A DNA stretch of 37,104 nucleotides from the NCBI RefSeq assembly GCF_003334315.1, contig NZ_QOWR01000047.1. One strand, written 5' to 3'. Below are positions 4,616 through 28,534 of the stretch, one piece after another; positions within the stretch are counted from its first letter, which is position 1, and every line of letters begins with the position of its first letter. Source of the DNA: Escherichia coli (lineage in GTDB: Bacteria > Pseudomonadota > Gammaproteobacteria > Enterobacterales > Enterobacteriaceae). Both the position numbers and the translations under genes were made by a program. The notes beneath the pieces are model-generated. The model did not search any database and was not told the origin of the DNA. It saw only the letters and a program-made list of their open reading frames with translations.

Positions 4616-5476
4616 TTACAGTCCCAGCAGGCCGCAAGCGTAACCAGCGATACCGATGACGAAGAAGCCAACGATGATCCACAGCGGGTTAACTTTTTTG
4701 CGCAGTAGCCACATACAAGCAAAGGTCAGCAGCAGTGGTACCAGGCCTGGCATTAACTGGTCCAGAATAGTCTGGACAGTAGTAACGTGTTCTTTGCCCG
4801 TCTGGTCAGTAATGCGAGAGACAACCAGCGGGATGTTGACATGTGTCCACTTGTTAACCAATGCCCCCATGACAAACAGGCCGAGGATAGACGCCCCTTC
4901 CGTCAGTTTTTGCAGGAAGCCACCACCCATATCTTTAACGATATCGATACCTTTGGAGTAACCATACGCTACGCCGTAGTAACGGGTTGCCAGACGCACC
5001 AGGTTAAACAGGATGAAGAACAGCAGCGGACCTAACAGGCTGCCGCTCATCGCGATACCGGCACCCAGTGCTGCAAATACCGGACGTACGGTTCCCCAGA
5101 AGATCGGGTCGCCTACACCAGCCAGTGGCCCCATCAAACCGACTTTGATACCGTTGATAGCACCGTCGTCGATCTCTGCGCCATTAGCACGCTGTTCTTC
5201 CAGCGCCAGGGTTACGCCGAGAATCGGCGCAGCCACGAACGGCTGGGTGTTAAAGAACTCCAGGTGACGGCGAATAGCTTGTTTACGAGCTTCGTTGTTC
5301 TCAGGGTAGAGGCGACGAATTGCCGGTACCATAGAGAAGCAGAAACCCAGTGCCTGCATACGTTCGAAGTTCCATGAACCCTGGAAGAGGTTAGAACGCA
5401 GGAAGACGCCACGAATATCACTTTGAGTGAGTTTTTTCTCGGTGGTAGTTTGAGTTGTATCAACCATTTCGCTCAC
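4616..5476 (-). CDS. manZ: PTS mannose transporter subunit IID, ManZ
   Basis: 286-aa ORF MSEMVDTTQTTTEKKLTQSDIRGVF...; third gene of the manXYZ order. Confidence 0.95.
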   Translation of the reverse strand: MSEMVDTTQTTTEKKLTQSDIRGVFLRSNLFQGSWNFERMQALGFCFSMVPAIRRLYPENNEARKQAIRRHLEFFNTQPFVAAPILGVTLALEEQRANGAEIDDGAINGIKVGLMGPLAGVGDPIFWGTVRPVFAALGAGIAMSGSLLGPLLFFILFNLVRLATRYYGVAYGYSKGIDIVKDMGGGFLQKLTEGASILGLFVMGALVNKWTHVNIPLVVSRITDQTGKEHVTTVQTILDQLMPGLVPLLLTFACMWLLRKKVNPLWIIVGFFVIGIAGYACGLLGL

Positions 5477-5479
5477 CTG

Positions 5480-6280
5480 TTAGTCCAGTTCGTTATCGAG
5501 ATCGTTGTTACCAGCTGCCTGAGCAGGCGCACCGGCTACGCGGTTGTATTTCGGGCTAAGTTGGATGTAGAGCACTGCCATAACAGTACCAATCACACCC
5601 AGAGCAACCAGGTTAAAGTTGGTGAATGCTGCGGTTACGAAGCCGAGGTAGAAGAACGGCATCAGGTAGCCAGCACGCATCATGTTGATAACCATCGCAT
5701 AACCAACCACCACGATCATGCCACCGGCGATATTCAGACCATTGGTCACCACTTCCGGAATCGCATTCAGCATGTTCTGTACTTCGCTGGTACCAACAGA
5801 CAGCGCAACGATGACGGCCGGAATAGCCACACGCATTGCTTGCAGGAACAGAGAAGAAACGTGGATCCAGGAAATCGCTGTCAGGTTGCCGTTATCAGCA
5901 GCCTTATCCGCAGCGTGCTGGAAAGCAACGGTAATAGTACGAACGATGATGGTCAGTACCTGGCCCGCAGCGGCCAGAGGGATTGCCAGTGCGATACCTG
6001 CACCAATGCTCTGATGACCTGCGATAACCAGAATGGTAGAAATGATAGAAGCCAGAGCGGCGTCAGGCGCAACTGCAGCACCGATGTTCATCCAGCCCAG
6101 CGCGATCATTTCCAGCGTACCACCGATAATAATACCGGTTTTCATATCCCCAAGAACGATACCCACCAGGGTACACGCGATTAGCGGACGGTGAAACTGA
6201 AATTCATCGAGGATTGATCCCATACCTGCGATACAGGCTACGATAAATACCAGCACAATTTGAAGAGTGGTAATCTCCAT
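5480..6280 (-). CDS. manY: PTS mannose transporter subunit IIC, ManY
   Basis: 266-aa polytopic membrane protein MEITTLQIVLVFIVACIAGMGSILDEFQFHRP... Confidence 0.95.
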   Translation of the reverse strand: MEITTLQIVLVFIVACIAGMGSILDEFQFHRPLIACTLVGIVLGDMKTGIIIGGTLEMIALGWMNIGAAVAPDAALASIISTILVIAGHQSIGAGIALAIPLAAAGQVLTIIVRTITVAFQHAADKAADNGNLTAISWIHVSSLFLQAMRVAIPAVIVALSVGTSEVQNMLNAIPEVVTNGLNIAGGMIVVVGYAMVINMMRAGYLMPFFYLGFVTAAFTNFNLVALGVIGTVMAVLYIQLSPKYNRVAGAPAQAAGNNDLDNELD

Positions 6281-21371: not shown

Positions 21372-22499
21372 TTGAATTACCAAATGATTACCACGGACGA
21401 TGCGCTGGCTTCTTTGTGTGAAGCCGTCCGTGCCTTTCCGGCGATAGCCCTGGATACTGAATTTGTTCGTACGCGCACTTATTACCCGCAGCTGGGGTTG
21501 ATTCAACTTTTCGATGGCGAGCATCTGGCGCTAATCGATCCACTCGGGATCACCGACTGGTCACCGCTGAAAGCGATCCTGCGCGATCCGTCCATCACAA
21601 AATTTCTCCATGCAGGCAGTGAAGATCTGGAAGTGTTCCTCAATGTCTTTGGCGAATTACCACAACCCTTGATTGACACGCAAATCCTTGCTGCCTTCTG
21701 CGGACGCCCGATGTCATGGGGTTTCGCTTCCATGGTGGAAGAGTATTCCGGCGTTACGCTGGACAAGAGTGAATCGCGCACCGACTGGCTGGCCAGACCG
21801 CTGACCGAACGTCAGTGTGAATACGCAGCGGCGGATGTCTGGTATCTGTTACCGATCACCGCCAAGCTTATGGTAGAAACGGAGGCCTCCGGCTGGCTAC
21901 CTGCGGCGCTGGATGAATGCCGCCTGATGCAAATGCGTCGTCAGGAAGTCGTTGCGCCGGAAGATGCCTGGCGTGATATCACCAATGCCTGGCAATTACG
22001 CACACGCCAACTGGCCTGTCTGCAACTGTTAGCCGACTGGCGACTGCGCAAGGCGCGAGAGCGCGATCTGGCGGTGAACTTTGTCGTGCGTGAAGAGCAT
22101 TTGTGGTCGGTAGCGCGTTATATGCCGGGAAGTTTAGGCGAACTGGACAGCCTGGGTTTATCCGGTAGCGAAATCCGCTTTCACGGTAAAACGCTGCTAG
22201 CGCTGGTGGAAAAAGCGCAGACATTGCCGGAAGATGCCTTACCGCAGCCGATGCTTAACCTGATGGACATGCCGGGTTATCGTAAAGCGTTTAAAGCGAT
22301 TAAGTCGCTGATTACTGACGTGAGCGAAACGCATAAGATCAGCGCCGAATTGCTGGCATCGCGTCGGCAAATCAACCAACTGCTGAACTGGCACTGGAAA
22401 CTGAAACCGCAGAACAATTTGCCGGAGCTGATTTCCGGCTGGCGTGGTGAGCTGATGGCGGAAGCATTACACAATTTATTGCAGGAATATCCGCAGTAA
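21372..22499 (+). CDS. rnd: ribonuclease D
   Basis: 375 aa beginning at TTG 21372 (MNYQMITTDDALASLCEAVRAFPAIALDTEF...); DEDD-exonuclease ALDTEF motif; rnd is known to use a UUG start. Confidence 0.9.
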   Translation: MNYQMITTDDALASLCEAVRAFPAIALDTEFVRTRTYYPQLGLIQLFDGEHLALIDPLGITDWSPLKAILRDPSITKFLHAGSEDLEVFLNVFGELPQPLIDTQILAAFCGRPMSWGFASMVEEYSGVTLDKSESRTDWLARPLTERQCEYAAADVWYLLPITAKLMVETEASGWLPAALDECRLMQMRRQEVVAPEDAWRDITNAWQLRTRQLACLQLLADWRLRKARERDLAVNFVVREEHLWSVARYMPGSLGELDSLGLSGSEIRFHGKTLLALVEKAQTLPEDALPQPMLNLMDMPGYRKAFKAIKSLITDVSETHKISAELLASRRQINQLLNWHWKLKPQNNLPELISGWRGELMAEALHNLLQEYPQ

Positions 22500-22505
22500 A
22501 ATCTT

Positions 22506-22548
22506 CCGAAGCCGGACTGGGCGCGCTCAGCGCCACATCCGGCTTCGG
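22506..22548. repeat. REP-like palindrome between convergent rnd and yeaX
   Basis: CCGAAGCCGGA ... TCCGGCTTCGG perfect 11-bp arms around a GC-rich loop. Confidence 0.4.
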
Positions 22549-22552
22549 CAAA

Positions 22553-23518
22553 CTACAAATCCAACACCAGGCGTTTACCCTTCGCACGCGAACAACAGAT
22601 CAACATACTTTGCTGGCTGGCACGCTCTTCATCGCTAAAATATTGATCCCGATGGTCAGCTTCACCTTCCAGTATTGCTGTTTCGCAGGTTCCGCATACC
22701 CCTTCACGACATAAACATTCCACTTTCGCGGCTTTATTATTTTCAATAACCTGCAAAATAGTCATCTCTTCCGGCACCACAAACTCTTTTCCGGAACGGG
22801 CAAGCACCAGGGTAAAGGCATCGCCGGTTTTGTCTTCGATAGCAAATTGCTCAAAGTGCAGCGTATCGGCGGCGATGTCCAGACGCGCAGCTTCACTTCT
22901 TACCGCTTCAATTAGCGCCTCGGGGCCACAGGTATAAACGTGTGTGCCAGGTTCGATATCCGCCAATAATCGCGCTAATTCCAGTCGTGTTCCGGTTGAT
23001 GAGTGATGCAAGTGAACTTTCTCAGCCTGCGGATGCTGGACTAGCTCATCACGAAATGCGCAACTTTCTGGATTTCGCGAGCAGTAATGTAGCTGCCAGT
23101 CGACGTCGCTGTGTTGCAGCTCTGCCATGTGCGACAGGAAAGGGGTGATACCAATACCGCCCGCGATAAACAGATGCTTTCTGGCTGAGGGAATTAGCGC
23201 AAACAGGTTATTAGGCGTTGAAATCGTTAACCGATTGCCCACTTTTACCTGCTGATGCAAAAAGCGGGAACCGCCGCGCGAGTTTTCCTCCAGCCGAACG
23301 GCAATCTGATAACAAGAGGTGTCATGCGGCGAACTCAGTAGTGAATACGCATTGCTGTACTGGTTATCACCATCGCTCATCTGCACAATGACGTGACTTC
23401 CTCCGGTAAACGCAGGTAATGGTTTGCCATCGGTTGCCACCAGCGTGAAGCGTTTCACCTGTTCGGTAAGGGGTTCAACCTGGCTCACCTGTACTTCAAA
23501 CATTTGATAGTCTGACAT
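22553..23518 (-). CDS. yeaX: carnitine monooxygenase reductase subunit YeaX (CntB-like)
   Basis: 321 aa; C-terminal plant-type 2Fe-2S ferredoxin motif CREGVCGTCETAILEG. Confidence 0.88.
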   Translation of the reverse strand: MSDYQMFEVQVSQVEPLTEQVKRFTLVATDGKPLPAFTGGSHVIVQMSDGDNQYSNAYSLLSSPHDTSCYQIAVRLEENSRGGSRFLHQQVKVGNRLTISTPNNLFALIPSARKHLFIAGGIGITPFLSHMAELQHSDVDWQLHYCSRNPESCAFRDELVQHPQAEKVHLHHSSTGTRLELARLLADIEPGTHVYTCGPEALIEAVRSEAARLDIAADTLHFEQFAIEDKTGDAFTLVLARSGKEFVVPEEMTILQVIENNKAAKVECLCREGVCGTCETAILEGEADHRDQYFSDEERASQQSMLICCSRAKGKRLVLDL

Positions 23519-23573
23519 TGCTGTACTCCATCAAAAATCAGCCCAGCGGCGGAAAATACCGCCGCCGATGTCA

Positions 23574-24698
23574 TTAGTCCTTAAACACCTGCGCCAGCAG
23601 ATTATGGAAATGGGCGATACCATGTTCGGAAATGCCACTACCGCTACTGTCGGCCATGATGCGCCCCTGACCACGATAGCCACGCGATTTCAGCCCTTTC
23701 TGTACGCTTTCAACCAGACGTAAATCTTCCGGACGGAACACATCGCGATACCACTCAATCAGCGATTTTTGCTCGTCGGTTAACTCTTCATTGGTGAAGT
23801 AAATATCGTAGTTTTGCAGGGTAGTTTCAGAATCCACCGGGAATTCATAAATGACCGTCATCATCCCTTTGATCGGGGTGACGTTCAGCATCGTGCACGG
23901 CCACAGCCAGAAACCGTGGAATGCCGCATCCGTACCCTCTTCAAATTTAAACGACTGTTCGGACGGTTTGGCGAAACCGTATTGCAGCGTCCAGTTACCG
24001 TGCATGGTGTGCCAGTAACGATCAACCTGTACGGAGTCGGAGAAACCTGGATGCGCCGGACCACAGTGATAGCACTCGAGATAGTTATCGACAATGTTCT
24101 TCCAGTTGGCAGGCGTGCGGGTGGTAAAGCGGGCCGCCAGTTTCAGATCGTGGACTTCCGGGCAGGCTTCCAGCACTTTCGCGCCCAGGCCGGGTAATTG
24201 ATCTTCTACGCTGGTGGCGTTGGGGTCCATGTTGATGAAGACGAATCCGGCATATTCTTCCAGACGCACCGGAACCAGTTGCGCTTTGTCGCTATCGAAA
24301 TTGGCGACGTTTTCGCAGTTACGTGCATGGGCCAGGTTGCCATCGAGTTTGAATGCCCATGCGTGATACGGGCAGGTAATCACATTTTTTGCTTTTCCTT
24401 CACCGCTCAACAACTGATGACCACGGTGCGGACACACGTTATAGAACGCGCGCAAAACCTTATCACGACCGCGTACCAGCACGATGCTTTCGCCAATGCT
24501 CTCACGCGTCACATAATCATTGGCATTCGCCAGTTCGCTGCTGTGAGCGACGCAAATCCAGCTTTTGGCGAAGACGTTCTCTTTTTCGTGTTCAAACGCG
24601 TTCTGATCGGTATAAAAACGGGCAGGAATGGTCCACGCCTCTTGCGGGTTAGCGCAAAAATTTTCGGGTAGTACAAAGTCAGGGCTCAGATTGCTCAT
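23574..24698 (-). CDS. yeaW: carnitine monooxygenase oxygenase subunit YeaW (CntA-like, Rieske)
   Basis: Rieske motif CPHRGHQLLSGEGKAKNVITCPYHAW; start at the internal ATG (MSNLSPDFVLPENF..., 374 aa) rather than the 414-aa maximum. Confidence 0.88.
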   Translation of the reverse strand: MSNLSPDFVLPENFCANPQEAWTIPARFYTDQNAFEHEKENVFAKSWICVAHSSELANANDYVTRESIGESIVLVRGRDKVLRAFYNVCPHRGHQLLSGEGKAKNVITCPYHAWAFKLDGNLAHARNCENVANFDSDKAQLVPVRLEEYAGFVFINMDPNATSVEDQLPGLGAKVLEACPEVHDLKLAARFTTRTPANWKNIVDNYLECYHCGPAHPGFSDSVQVDRYWHTMHGNWTLQYGFAKPSEQSFKFEEGTDAAFHGFWLWPCTMLNVTPIKGMMTVIYEFPVDSETTLQNYDIYFTNEELTDEQKSLIEWYRDVFRPEDLRLVESVQKGLKSRGYRGQGRIMADSSGSGISEHGIAHFHNLLAQVFKD

Positions 24699-24729
24699 AG
24701 GGATACCTTTATCGTTAGGATGATGGCGC

Positions 24730-26175
24730 TCAGTTGTCGCCTTTGAATACGGTTCCCGCAGGGAGCACTGGCGTTTTTTCCAGGGCTTCAACCGGTGTCT
24801 GCGGGAGATAATGTTCAACTTGATGAGCCGGAATGTCGGCGTAATCCTGTTTCAGCCAGCGAATAAACCCGCCGACTTTCACCAGTAAAATGACGAGGAA
24901 GGGAAGGGCTGTGAGCACGACGGTGGTTTTCATCGTTTCCAGCGAAGCACCGGTAAACAAGATGGAAAGCGGGATCAGAGTGATCACCACGCACCAGAAA
25001 AGACGCAGCCCACGGTCAGGATCGTCACCTTCCTGGAGATTACGCGTACTGGTCGCCGCCATGGTGTAGGCCACTGCATCCATATGCGAGGCAAGGAAAA
25101 TAATCATCACGCCCAGGTATGCGGCGAGGAACAATTTACCGGCTGGCAACGACATCAGAACTTGCTGTACAGCTGTTTCGCCGCCCAGTGTTTCCAGCAC
25201 CTGTGGGACGTTGATTACGCCATTGATAAACTGATGAATGGCATAGCTTTCCATTACGCCAAAGAAGAACCAGCAACCGACGGTGCTGCCGAGGATCAGT
25301 CCCCAGATAACTTCTTTAATCTTACGACCGCGGGAAACGCGGGTGACAAACATTGCTACGCCAGGGGTGTATGAGATCCACCACAGCCAGTAGAAAACGG
25401 TCCAGTTGCGGGTAAATGAACCATCGCCAAGCGGATCGGTGAATAAGCTCATTTGCAGGAAGTTTTGCGTGGTCAGGCCGATGGCATTGATGATGCTGTT
25501 GGTAATAAATTCGGTTGGGCCGACAATCAGCACCAGTAATGGCAGCAGGAACGCGCCCCAGCCAACCATTTTGCTCAGACGTTGCAAACCGTTGTTGATA
25601 CCAATCCACGAGCTTAGGCAAAAAATGCCGCCGGAAAGCAGGATCACAAATGCCTGCACGGTGAAGTTATCGGGTAAACCGGTCAGCGCGGAAAGCCCAC
25701 GGGTAAAGGTTGCTGCGGTAACAACAAGGGAAATGGTCAGTGCGCCGACAGTGGCGATCAGGAACATCAAATCGACCAGTTTTCCCCATGGGCCTTGCGG
25801 GCGAACGCCGGTAATAGCAGCAATAATGCCGGAAAGGCTCAGACCTTTGTTTTTCCGCACATGAAAGTGATAAGCCATGATTAATGAGGCCAGCGTATAA
25901 GTTGCCCAGGCGCTGATGCCCCAGTGGAAGAAAGAGTAGGGAACGCTAAATTCGAGTGCCTGTTGTGAACGCGGTGCGATATTTAATCCAGGCGTTTGAT
26001 AATAATAGGCCCATTCAGCAACCCCCCAATAAAGCGTAGAAGAACCTAAACCGGCACAAATAAACATAAACAGCCAGGAGAGCGTGCTGTATTCCGGTTT
26101 TCCTTCGCCAAGACGAATATTGCCGTATTTACTGGTGGCTAAATAAATCACCAGTCCCATTGCCAGCAAAACCAA
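24730..26175 (-). CDS. yeaV: BCCT-family transporter YeaV
   Basis: 481 aa; the segment [22 protein letters not shown] aligns with the CaiT/BetT region I recall; the first codon is TTG (plus 26173-26175) with a stop 16 codons upstream. Confidence 0.85.
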
Positions 26176-26319
26176 TACCTGTACGGCGGAACCTAACGTA
26201 CGCGTAACAAAATTTGCATGTTACATAAATTAAACAATTAAGAATACGGAAAGCCATAAAACACGAAACGGAAACAATAAAAGGTGAAATGACGCAGGTT
26301 ATTTACTGCAAAGAACGAA

Positions 26320-26346
26320 TAAAAAAACCGCGTCAGTGACGCGGTT
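26320..26346 (-). terminator. intrinsic terminator downstream of dmlA
   Basis: Minus strand reads ACCGCGT-CACTG-ACGCGGT followed by seven U. Confidence 0.55.
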
Positions 26347-26365
26347 CAAATAAACTGGTTTGACC

Positions 26366-27451
26366 TTAACGCAAAATAATTTTGCAAATCGCGTCGGCAA
26401 CCTGTGGCGTGGTGGCATTGCCTTTCATATCAGGTGTTTTCGGCCCGTGAGCAATCACTTCTTCAATTGCTGCCAGAATACCGTTATGCGCTTGCTGGAA
26501 ACGCTCATCGCCATTGCCGAGAAAATCGAGCATCATTGCCCCGGCCCAAATCGTGGCGATAGGGTTAGCAATATTTTTCCCGTAGATATCCGGCGCGGAA
26601 CCGTGGACAGGCTCGAAGAGCGACGGGAAAGTGCGTTCCGGATTCAGGTTGGCGGATGGGGCAATGCCAATGGTGCCGGTGCAGGCCGGGCCAAGATCGG
26701 AAAGGATATCGCCAAACAAATTGGACGCCACCACCACATCGAATCGTTCCGGCTGCATCACAAAACGCGCGCAGAGAATATCAATATGCTGCTTGTCCCA
26801 GCGGATCTCCGGGTAATTCTCGGCCATTGCTTCCACTCGCTCATCCCAGTACGGCATGCTGATGGCTAAACCGTTCGATTTAGTGGCAGAAGTTAGCGTC
26901 TTACGTGGGCGGCTTTGCGCAAGTTCGAAGGCATAACGCAAAATGCGATCGACACCACGACGCGTAAATACCGATTCCTGAATGACGACTTCATGCTCTG
27001 TACCTTCATTCACTCTACCGCCGAGCGAGGAATATTCGCCTTCGGTGTTTTCCCTGACCACGTAAAAATCGATGTCGCCAGGCTGTTTTCCCGCCAGCGG
27101 GCAGGGAACGCCAGGAAAGAGACGAACCGGGCGCAGGTTGACGTACTGGTCGAATTCACGACGAAATTTCAGCAGCGAACCCCACAACGAAATATGGTCC
27201 GGAACGGTATCCGGCCAGCCGACGGCACCAAAATAGATGGCGTCGAAACGGCTAAGTTGCTCATGCCAGTCGTCCGGCATCATTTTACCGTGATGGCTGT
27301 AATACTCGCAGCTCGCCCACTCCATTTGCTCAAAACTCAAGGCGAAGCCCCAGCGCTCAGCGGCAGCCTGTAACACGCGAATCCCTTCAGGAAGGACTTC
27401 TTTGCCAATCCCGTCTCCCGGGATCGCAGCAATACGCATCGTTTTCATCAT
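26366..27451 (-). CDS. dmlA: D-malate dehydrogenase (decarboxylating) DmlA (YeaU)
   Basis: 361-aa ORF MMKTMRIAAIPGDGIGKEVLPEG..., isocitrate/isopropylmalate dehydrogenase-like N-terminus. Confidence 0.9.
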   Translation of the reverse strand: MMKTMRIAAIPGDGIGKEVLPEGIRVLQAAAERWGFALSFEQMEWASCEYYSHHGKMMPDDWHEQLSRFDAIYFGAVGWPDTVPDHISLWGSLLKFRREFDQYVNLRPVRLFPGVPCPLAGKQPGDIDFYVVRENTEGEYSSLGGRVNEGTEHEVVIQESVFTRRGVDRILRYAFELAQSRPRKTLTSATKSNGLAISMPYWDERVEAMAENYPEIRWDKQHIDILCARFVMQPERFDVVVASNLFGDILSDLGPACTGTIGIAPSANLNPERTFPSLFEPVHGSAPDIYGKNIANPIATIWAGAMMLDFLGNGDERFQQAHNGILAAIEEVIAHGPKTPDMKGNATTPQVADAICKIILR

Positions 27452-27553
27452 TGGGTTCTCACTTCCTGACCATCAAAATTGACAACATCACCATCCTATA
27501 ATTGACTGAAAAGGAATTAATCCCCGTAACTGGTGAAACATAAAACACGAATC

Positions 27554-28477
27554 ATGAATAATTTACCGCTGCTGAATGATTTGCGCGTCTTTATGCTGGT
27601 GGCTCGCCGGGCTGGTTTTGCCGCCGTGGCGGAAGAACTGGGCGTTTCACCGGCGTTCGTCAGCAAGCGCATCGCCTTGCTGGAGCAAACGCTAAACGTG
27701 GTGTTGTTACACCGCACCACCCGCCGCGTCACCATTACCGAAGAAGGAGAGCGGATTTATGAATGGGCGCAGCGGATTTTGCAGGATGTCGGTCAGATGA
27801 TGGACGAACTTTCTGACGTGCGTCAGGTGCCGCAGGGGATGCTGCGTATTATCAGCAGCTTTGGTTTTGGACGACAGGTGGTGGCTCCGGCGTTATCAGC
27901 GCTGGCGAAGGCGTATCCGCAACTGGAATTACGTTTTGATGTGGAAGACCGACTGGTCGATTTGGTCAATGAAGGTGTCGATCTCGATATTCGCATTGGC
28001 GATGACATCGCCCCTAATTTAATCGCCCGCAAACTGGCGACCAATTACCGTATTCTCTGCGCGTCGCCGGAATTTATTGCGCAACATGGCGCGCCGAAAC
28101 ATTTAACCGATCTTTCTGCATTGCCGTGCCTGGTCATTAAAGAGCGCGATCATCCTTTTGGTGTCTGGCAATTACGCAATAAAGAAGGCCCCCATGCGAT
28201 TAAAGTCACCGGCCCACTGTCGTCTAATCATGGAGAAATTGTCCATCAGTGGTGTCTCGATGGGCAGGGGATTGCTCTGCGTTCCTGGTGGGATGTTAGC
28301 GAAAACATTGCCAGTGGTCATTTAGTGCAAGTGCTACCGGAATATTACCAGCCAGCGAACGTCTGGGCCGTTTATGTTTCAAGGCTGGCGACGTCAGCGA
28401 AAGTGCGGATAACGGTAGAATTTTTACGCCAGTATTTTGTCGAGCACTACCCGAATTTTTCACTGGAGCATGCCTGA
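27554..28477 (+). CDS. dmlR: LysR-family regulator DmlR (YeaT)
   Basis: Start at ATG 27554 (MNNLPLLNDLRVFMLVARRAGFAAVAEELGVSPAFVSKRI, an HTH) giving 307 aa; divergent from dmlA. Confidence 0.85.
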   Translation: MNNLPLLNDLRVFMLVARRAGFAAVAEELGVSPAFVSKRIALLEQTLNVVLLHRTTRRVTITEEGERIYEWAQRILQDVGQMMDELSDVRQVPQGMLRIISSFGFGRQVVAPALSALAKAYPQLELRFDVEDRLVDLVNEGVDLDIRIGDDIAPNLIARKLATNYRILCASPEFIAQHGAPKHLTDLSALPCLVIKERDHPFGVWQLRNKEGPHAIKVTGPLSSNHGEIVHQWCLDGQGIALRSWWDVSENIASGHLVQVLPEYYQPANVWAVYVSRLATSAKVRITVEFLRQYFVEHYPNFSLEHA

Positions 28478-28534
28478 TTAATGATTCAATTATCGGGTTG
28501 ATATCAGGTTAAAACCTGATTTTCTCCTTTCTAA

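Follow-up and report, generated by a model that had tools for sequence, protein, structure and literature searches.

A 225-bp deletion has removed the start and first transmembrane helix of yeaV in the carnitine monooxygenase cluster of Escherichia coli K-12- and B-type strains

Why should the gene for a BCCT transporter begin at a TTG codon shortly after a stop codon, and encode a protein that lacks the N-terminal region found in its relatives? The question is raised by yeaV, one of three genes (yeaV, yeaW and yeaX) at positions 22553-26175 of a 37,104-nucleotide stretch of Escherichia coli DNA (contig NZ_QOWR01000047.1, assembly GCF_003334315.1), the whole of which is referred to here as the window. 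An initial annotation made from the sequence alone had described the trio as a BCCT transporter beside a carnitine monooxygenase pair of the CntA/CntB type, and had pointed to the unusual yeaV start and to an apparent lack of roughly 55 N-terminal residues, including the first transmembrane (TM) region. The three-gene set is the known E. coli cluster for conversion of carnitine to trimethylamine (TMA), with yeaV as the transporter and yeaW/yeaX as the oxygenase, and its yeaV is short and TTG-started because a 225-bp deletion took the start of the gene and its first membrane helix.

When positions 22400-26500 of the window were compared with 5426 complete E. coli genomes, the collection over which all population counts given here were taken, every genome contained at least a partial match, and many of the matches spanned 4326 bp as against the 4101 bp of the window. 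Alignment with the O157:H7 locus showed the window to lack 225 bp at 26212/26213, as a clean gap with a one-base ambiguity. In O157:H7, yeaV is 1611 nt in length and encodes a protein of 536 residues (WP_000987525.1), and the DNA absent from the window (5314..5538 of the O157:H7 locus, L001) consists of 97 nt upstream of the ATG and 128 nt of coding sequence, i.e., codons 1-43. The deleted leader contains an AGGAG ribosome-binding site (CCCAGGAGATGACTC-ATG), and the sequence with which the 536-residue protein begins, MMSNVKKKDVPLISISLVAILFIAAALSLFPQQSADAANAIYT, is absent from the window.

The open reading frame (ORF) annotated as yeaV starts with the TTG at 26175 and encodes 481 residues that are identical to residues 56-536 of the O157:H7 protein. 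Translation of the upstream DNA placed a TAA at 26223-26221, exactly 16 codons before the TTG, as the initial annotation had stated, and its estimate of the missing residues proved exact (481 versus 536 residues). The NCBIfam equivalog model NF007412, which has 536 positions, is matched at positions 1-536 by the O157:H7 protein and only at positions 56-536 by the window protein, which scores 969 bits (cut-off 647) over this partial match. Ancestral codons 44-55 (F44-V55) survive 5' of the TTG and are untranslated, as the intergenic DNA now joined to them supplies a stop, and the 481-residue "YeaV" is the longest ORF left, read from the first start-capable codon after that stop. An alternative upstream start or a frameshifted N-terminus was considered and rejected, as the other two frames 5' of the TTG also carry stops and no TM1-like segment is encoded in any of the three; the true start exists only in the DNA of other strains. 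The features concerned are as follows.

24730..26211, minus strand: yeaV remnant, a 5'-truncated BCCT gene in which the ancestral frame is kept from codon 44 to the stop (O157:H7 alignment, translation)
24730..26175, minus strand: the yeaV ORF as annotated in K-12, 481 codons, with a TTG start that is ancestral Leu56, within TM2
26212..26213: junction of the 225-bp deletion, with a 1-nt ambiguity (T) (pairwise alignment)

That the gap is an artefact of sequencing or assembly of the window is extremely improbable, and was rejected because the same 44-nt junction is present in 1439 complete genomes (its sequence being identical in 1415 of the 1439 matches) and BL21(DE3) has the same allele. The 225-bp segment is kept in 2930 of the 5426 genomes (54.0%), the exact deletion junction occurs in 1439 (26.5%) and the cluster is lacking from ~1058 (19.5%); the two alleles add up to 4369, one more than the 4368 operon-carrying genomes. 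The junction was found in the K-12 derivatives MC4100, BW25113 and J53, and BL21(DE3) carries the truncated allele as judged from its annotation. In strain 4/2-1 and in BL21(DE3), the NCBI Prokaryotic Genome Annotation Pipeline (PGAP) labels a gene of the same extent as the window remnant "incomplete; missing N-terminus", i.e., a pseudogene. MG1655, which differs from the window at 7 of the 4101 positions, keeps yeaV in RefSeq as an intact 481-residue coding sequence (CDS), b1801.

Mediation of the deletion by repeats was considered and rejected, as the junction overlap is only 1 nt. The deletion is not flanked by the 15-nt direct repeat that the intact allele does contain (TA[AC]C[AC]TGCAAATAAT; L001 5491-5505 and 5535-5549, 44 nt apart). 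Of the two copies, one overlaps the putative -10 box discussed below and one is in the leader; the second is not conserved in other genera. Two further variants were seen at this site. In the deletion-allele genomes HS30-1 and ET734 (L011 2594-3290), which were among those listed by chance, an IS1 element lies in or next to the truncated yeaV, and such insertions are consistent with the remnant being dispensable. In strain HS-02 (L010 2600-2670), a low-complexity stretch rich in A, T and C replaces yeaV codons ~10-43 with the leader intact; we did not accept it as a second independent deletion, since it is most likely an assembly or basecalling error.

The long, 536-residue form of YeaV is the ancestral one. 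Orthologues from Klebsiella, Enterobacter lignolyticus, Citrobacter/Salmonella, Shimwellia, Serratia, Yersinia, Xenorhabdus, Pseudomonas, Cupriavidus, Aeromonas and Helicobacter are 528-550 residues long and cover 92-100% of the 536-residue query, and their N-termini align, with invariant or near-invariant positions at D9, L12, P31, A38, T46, G50 and Q54. The leader, ribosome-binding site and start can likewise be aligned in three other enterobacterial genera (Citrobacter-type, E. lignolyticus and Klebsiella). The opposite polarity, in which the short form would be ancestral and the 225 bp of other E. coli a secondary insertion or N-terminal extension, has in its favor only the existence of two length variants, and we regard it as highly implausible: the segment encodes an N-terminus homologous to those of orthologues in many genera, its leader and ribosome-binding site align with the loci of the three genera named, it carries no repeats or mobile-element features, and NF007412 is itself a 536-position model. 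Accordingly, neither outgroups without the N-terminal 55 residues nor a mobile insertion of 225 bp, both of which were sought as refutations of a deletion, was found.

What the deletion removed from the protein can be read against the known architecture of the family, in which 12 helices include an inverted-repeat core of TM3-7 and TM8-12, and the periplasmic side of TM2 contacts the neighboring protomer in the trimer (described in the structural passages of PMC11323884). An AlphaFold model of full-length YeaV, built from a 25-sequence alignment (predicted local distance difference test score, pLDDT, 76.6; predicted template modeling score, pTM, 0.80), has helices at residues 10-29 (TM1) and 31-69, the latter being the periplasmic helix plus TM2; directly from the sequence, TM2 is a hydrophobic stretch bracketed by R47 and K71. 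TM1 is absent from the window protein and ~8 of the 23 TM2 residues (48-55) lie outside the ORF, so the protein does not have the twelve helices of a BCCT transporter. The loss of the first TM region suggested at the outset is therefore borne out, with the 225-bp deletion as its cause, and the possibility that an alignment would reveal no missing helix did not hold, although the TM3-TM12 core is whole. The tryptophan-rich motif of TM8 is present as WTVFYWLWW at window residues 258-266 (the WTxFYWxWW pattern) and is invariant across the orthologues. There is no doubt as to the family: the window protein scores 548 bits against TIGR00842 (cut-off 407.55), and PF02028 is recorded on all of the homologues. 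Solved structures give the same picture. Full-length YeaV aligns to residues 27-504 of CaiT, the E. coli antiporter of L-carnitine and gamma-butyrobetaine (PDB 2WSX, 3HFX; E=8e-70), with which it shares the BCCT/LeuT fold, and to residues 14-498 of DddT (E=3e-100), whereas window YeaV aligns only from chain residue 67 of CaiT and residue 61 of DddT; TM1 and the start of TM2 of the solved BCCT transporters (CaiT, DddT, BetP and BetT) have no counterpart in it.

The deletion also affects the signals for expression. Full-length O157:H7 yeaV has the same genomic position and neighbors, and by comparison the window allele is without the leader, the ribosome-binding site and part of a putative -10 box. 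At the ancestral ATG, AGGAG pairs with the anti-Shine-Dalgarno sequence at -7.4 kcal/mol with a spacing of 6-9 nt, compared with -3.8 kcal/mol at a spacing of 0 for the annotated TTG and -3.3 to -3.9 kcal/mol for the other in-frame starts (TTG 26169, ATG 26160 and GTG 26151). A promoter candidate, TTGTTT-N17-AATAAT, was found by a position-weighted scan more tolerant than our built-in sigma-70 scan (threshold 9/12). Among sigma-70-like sites it ranks first in the intergenic regions of O157, the Citrobacter-type locus and Klebsiella and second in that of E. lignolyticus, and it lies at the same aligned position in all four, inside a conserved block. The left end of the deletion would cut into the -10 box of this candidate, the best conserved one: in the window the -35 TTGTTT (26237..26232) is retained, the -10 is changed from AATAAT to AATTTT (26214..26209), and the score of the candidate falls from +5.15 to -1.12. 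The elements of the intergenic region are as follows.

26209..26237, minus strand: putative ancestral yeaV promoter, damaged by the deletion (position-weighted scan and conservation)
26213..26310, minus strand: conserved intergenic block 5' of the transporter gene, retained in the window (four-locus alignment)
26325..26347, minus strand: hairpin resembling an intrinsic terminator after dmlA (terminator scan; conserved in other genera)

The AT-rich block at 26213-26310 (CACCTTTTATTGTTTCC..GTGTTTTAT...AATTGTTTAATTTATGTAAC) is far more conserved over the four enterobacterial loci than the leader that follows it, and is probably a promoter plus regulator-binding region. The conserved hairpin after dmlA argues that yeaVWX is normally a transcription unit of its own. 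Genomic systematic evolution of ligands by exponential enrichment (SELEX) lists yeaV as a target of CRP (target list of PMC3105977); a search for the CRP site TGTGA-N6-TCACA gave 26 matches against 25.5 expected, no more than chance. A search of the leader and region against Rfam returned no riboswitch or known RNA.

The two enzyme genes downstream are intact. YeaW carries the Rieske motif C89-x-H91...C109-x2-H112 followed by E208/H211/H216, an ExxHxxxxH stretch of the mononuclear-iron region, and has the Pfam domains Rieske and Ring_hydroxyl_A. CntA of Acinetobacter baumannii (PDB 6Y8J) matches it over its full length (residues 4-371 versus 21-389, E=4.7e-196), with the next best Rieske oxygenases at only E ~1e-32. 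In YeaX the domains FAD_binding_6, NAD_binding_1 and Fer2 follow in that order, with a C-terminal plant-type 2Fe-2S motif (C270-x4-C275-x2-C278...C308/309), and its closest solved structures are proteins of the phthalate dioxygenase reductase (PDR) type (PDR 2PIA, E=1e-55, residues 9-321). These motifs agree with those first recognized from the two sequences alone, and the CntA match, the YeaX domains and the RefSeq names of both proteins (carnitine monooxygenase subunits) confirm the trio as a BCCT transporter with a CntA/CntB-type pair. From published enzymology YeaW/YeaX convert L-carnitine, O2 and NAD(P)H to TMA and malic semialdehyde, and activity of the E. coli enzymes is on record (PMC6200775, PMC11353897).

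Some sequence variation was seen in the enzymes. Window YeaW has an Ile67Ser substitution in the Rieske domain (codon 67, position 24499), where MG1655, BL21 and O157 have Ile and A. baumannii CntA has Val; the Ser67 allele is found in 58 of the 5426 genomes, apparently all of one sub-lineage that includes strain HS30-1. Window YeaX differs from that of MG1655 by Asp95Asn (codon 95, position 23236) and from that of O157 at seven residues, and among E. coli strains YeaX is far more variable than YeaW or YeaV (0-1 amino-acid differences).

As judged from the ORF list and the RefSeq annotation of matching genomes, the region belongs to the E. coli chromosome, and fadD and rnd lie on its plus strand. 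The order in the window is yeaX, yeaW, yeaV and dmlA on the minus strand, with dmlR divergent. The genes rnd and yeaX converge, and between their stop codons (22506-22548) two arms of 11 bp (CCGAAGCCGGA ... TCCGGCTTCGG), separated by 21 nt, form a perfect inverted repeat, which looks like a repetitive extragenic palindromic (REP)-type element or a shared terminator. The genes that accompany yeaV are as follows.

22553..23518, minus strand: yeaX, CntB-type carnitine monooxygenase reductase subunit, 321 residues, intact (ORF list, Pfam, structure matches, RefSeq name)
23574..24698, minus strand: yeaW, CntA-type Rieske oxygenase subunit, 374 residues, intact (ORF list, Pfam, CntA 6Y8J match; the listed ORF is 23574..24818 on the minus strand, and the real ATG at 24698 follows from RefSeq and the CntA alignment)
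26366..27451, minus strand: dmlA, D-malate/3-isopropylmalate dehydrogenase (ORF list, RefSeq name)
27554..28477, plus strand: dmlR, divergent LysR-type regulator (ORF list, RefSeq coordinates transferred from a matching genome)

Comparison with other bacteria places dmlA and dmlR in the same cluster. The Klebsiella, Pseudomonas, Citrobacter-type and E. lignolyticus loci have the arrangement LysR / Iso_dh - BCCT - Rieske - Aldedh - reductase, and in all four the Iso_dh gene is directly upstream of the BCCT gene, the LysR gene is at the same position, and a gene for a ~482-residue aldehyde dehydrogenase (malic semialdehyde dehydrogenase) lies between the oxygenase and reductase genes. The cluster of A. 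baumannii comprises carR, mdh, bcct/Aci01347, hyd, cntA, msadh and cntB (PMC11353897), and has in common with that of E. coli the order LysR regulator, D-malate dehydrogenase, BCCT transporter, Rieske oxygenase and reductase; dmlA is the orthologue of the malate dehydrogenase step of the Acinetobacter pathway and dmlR that of carR. Identities between the five shared proteins of the two species are given as 45/72/56/72/52% in the comparison of PMC11353897, where the Acinetobacter pathway is described as carnitine to TMA plus malic semialdehyde, then D-malate through the malic semialdehyde dehydrogenase (MSA-DH), then pyruvate through a DmlA-like dehydrogenase. Unlike the A. baumannii cluster, that of E. 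coli is without hyd and msadh, and in the window the transporter is additionally truncated. The gap between yeaW and yeaX (23519-23573) is only 55 nt and contains no aldehyde dehydrogenase gene, so the cluster is not a complete one of the Acinetobacter type; it is already incomplete in all E. coli alleles, and the absence of the MSA-DH gene from E. coli is noted in the part of PMC11353897 that deals with this species. Where the cluster is lacking altogether, as in strain A37 (L004 7101-7642, corresponding to ~22500-28500 of the window), fragments of dmlA/dmlR of ~156 nt and ~168 nt are all that is left between rnd and leuE, from which it follows that the dmlR-dmlA-yeaVWX block was lost together; the joint loss of the five genes is consistent with one functional module.

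Taken together, we read the window as carrying the carnitine-cleavage cluster dmlR / dmlA-yeaV-yeaW-yeaX in its K-12/B-type allele, with a 225-bp deletion, and assign this reading a probability of about 0.85. The single deletion, running from inside the putative -10 box to yeaV codon 43, took the 5' leader, AGGAG site, ATG, TM1 and the periplasmic helix leading into TM2, together with the putative transcription-start region. The YeaV transporter would then probably not be made, or would be made poorly and minus 1.4 helices, and transcription of yeaW and yeaX from the native promoter would be weakened, leaving enzymes that are intact but poorly transcribed and a pathway that would as a result be largely silent in deletion-allele strains. 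The allele is most likely a decayed version of the operon. Published data bear on this expectation. In the E. coli experiments of PMC11353897, BL21, B and K12 did not grow on carnitine and carnitine monooxygenase activity was undetectable in BL21 extract, and of the strains in those growth assays K-12 and BL21 carry the deletion allele; the same authors searched GEO manually and came upon no conditions under which cntA was substantially transcribed. O157 Sakai carries the intact allele, and its yeaV and yeaW were induced at growth transitions (expression data of PMC2241611).

Several considerations weigh against this reading. The MSA-DH gene is missing from every E. coli allele, and the failure to grow on carnitine can therefore not be attributed to the deletion alone. 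The promoter is a candidate assigned from scan scores and conservation, and the stricter built-in scan at its 9/12 threshold found no sigma-70 promoter in either allele; the conserved upstream block is retained in the deletion allele, so transcription may persist. In each of the four strains with the deletion allele that were examined (the window, MG1655, 4/2-1 and BL21) the remnant ORF runs without interruption, and it retains the whole TM3-TM12 core together with the TM8 motif. The N-terminus of its product is hydrophobic, with K/R residues after it, and could insert in an N-out orientation. Lastly, untargeted metabolomics of K-12 knockout and overexpression strains recorded yeaV-dependent changes, with carnitine depleted on overexpression (yeaV results of PMC10971958).

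Several of these observations would suit a rival explanation, in which the 481-residue ORF with the TTG start encodes a true BCCT transporter that is shorter but functional, made up of the 10 core helices and a curtailed TM2, its expression being driven by signals that are retained or cryptic. It is favored by the intact CDS b1801 of MG1655, the intact ORF in the four strains, the complete LeuT-fold core (TM3-TM12, as the core is defined in PMC11323884) with its TM8 Trp motif, the retained upstream block, and the K-12 metabolomics, in which knockout and overexpression suggested yeaV-dependent uptake of compounds including carnitine (PMC10971958); in addition, an AGGTA lies 6 nt from the second TTG (26169) and is no worse than the site of yeaW itself. 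Set against this, TM1 and a full TM2 are kept in every orthologue examined, with invariant residues there, and the periplasmic end of TM2 contributes to the trimer interface of BCCT proteins (PMC11323884, in its account of the trimer). The curated equivalog is matched only in part, PGAP classes the gene as a pseudogene, and its TTG is an ordinary codon for an internal Leu, uncovered by the deletion. The strong ribosome-binding site and putative -10 have been lost, IS1 has inserted at the remnant in HS30-1 and ET734, and the metabolomics evidence is untargeted and tentative. Comparison of deletion alleles with one another revealed up to 7 synonymous and no non-synonymous differences, which at first sight might indicate that the remnant is still under purifying selection. 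However, 4 of the 7 variable yeaV sites have states in common with intact O157 yeaV and those private to BL21, three in number, lie within ~110 nt of one another, and the variable sites probably reflect recombination or older polymorphism. As most of these sites share states with the intact allele, the synonymous-only variation is not evidence of selection. On balance we consider a functional short transporter unlikely, with decay of the operon the preferred reading; were the 481-residue protein to transport after all, nature would have shown that a BCCT carrier can do without TM1.

Earlier publications already describe the cluster, its enzyme pair and the lack of msadh, and the truncated allele has already been flagged by the RefSeq pipeline; this is not a new kind of system, and the yeaV allele is an ordinary, already-catalogued, lineage-specific case of gene decay that is common to standard laboratory strains. 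Its practical value is as a caveat for work on YeaV or on carnitine-derived TMA in K-12 or BL21. The reference annotation of MG1655 lists YeaV as an intact 481-residue "putative transporter". UniProt likewise treats it as intact, and TCDB includes it. Cultures of K-12, B and BL21, or knockout and overexpression clones of K-12, have been used to infer the function of "E. coli YeaV" or of the cntA operon (experiments on these genes in PMC10971958 and PMC11353897), and in the passages of the two papers that concern them (sections 3.13-3.14 of the latter) the truncation, or 5'-deleted allele, is not mentioned; nor did a full-text literature search on yeaV/yeaW/yeaX find mention of a truncation in the passages retrieved. 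A related point concerns a table in a review (PMC6200775), in which the entry "K12 +" for whole-cell TMA production cites Rath 2017; where that study mentions K12, its DNA was used only as a standard for quantitative PCR (PMC5433236).

For the species as a whole, we tentatively suggest that K-12 and B are natural mutants in which a deletion has taken the promoter and 5' end of the carnitine monooxygenase operon, and that strains with the intact allele (~54%) may express the operon and make TMA from carnitine aerobically, in contrast to the deletion (~27%) and cluster-less (~19%) strains, which would not. If this somewhat doubtful proposal is true, counting cntA/yeaW genes would mislead as an estimate of the TMA potential of the gut, as would conclusions on "E. 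coli" drawn from K-12 or BL21. Three genotypes, intact, 5'-deleted and cluster absent, segregate in E. coli, and the capacity to convert carnitine to TMA can therefore not be read from species identity or from the presence of yeaW alone.

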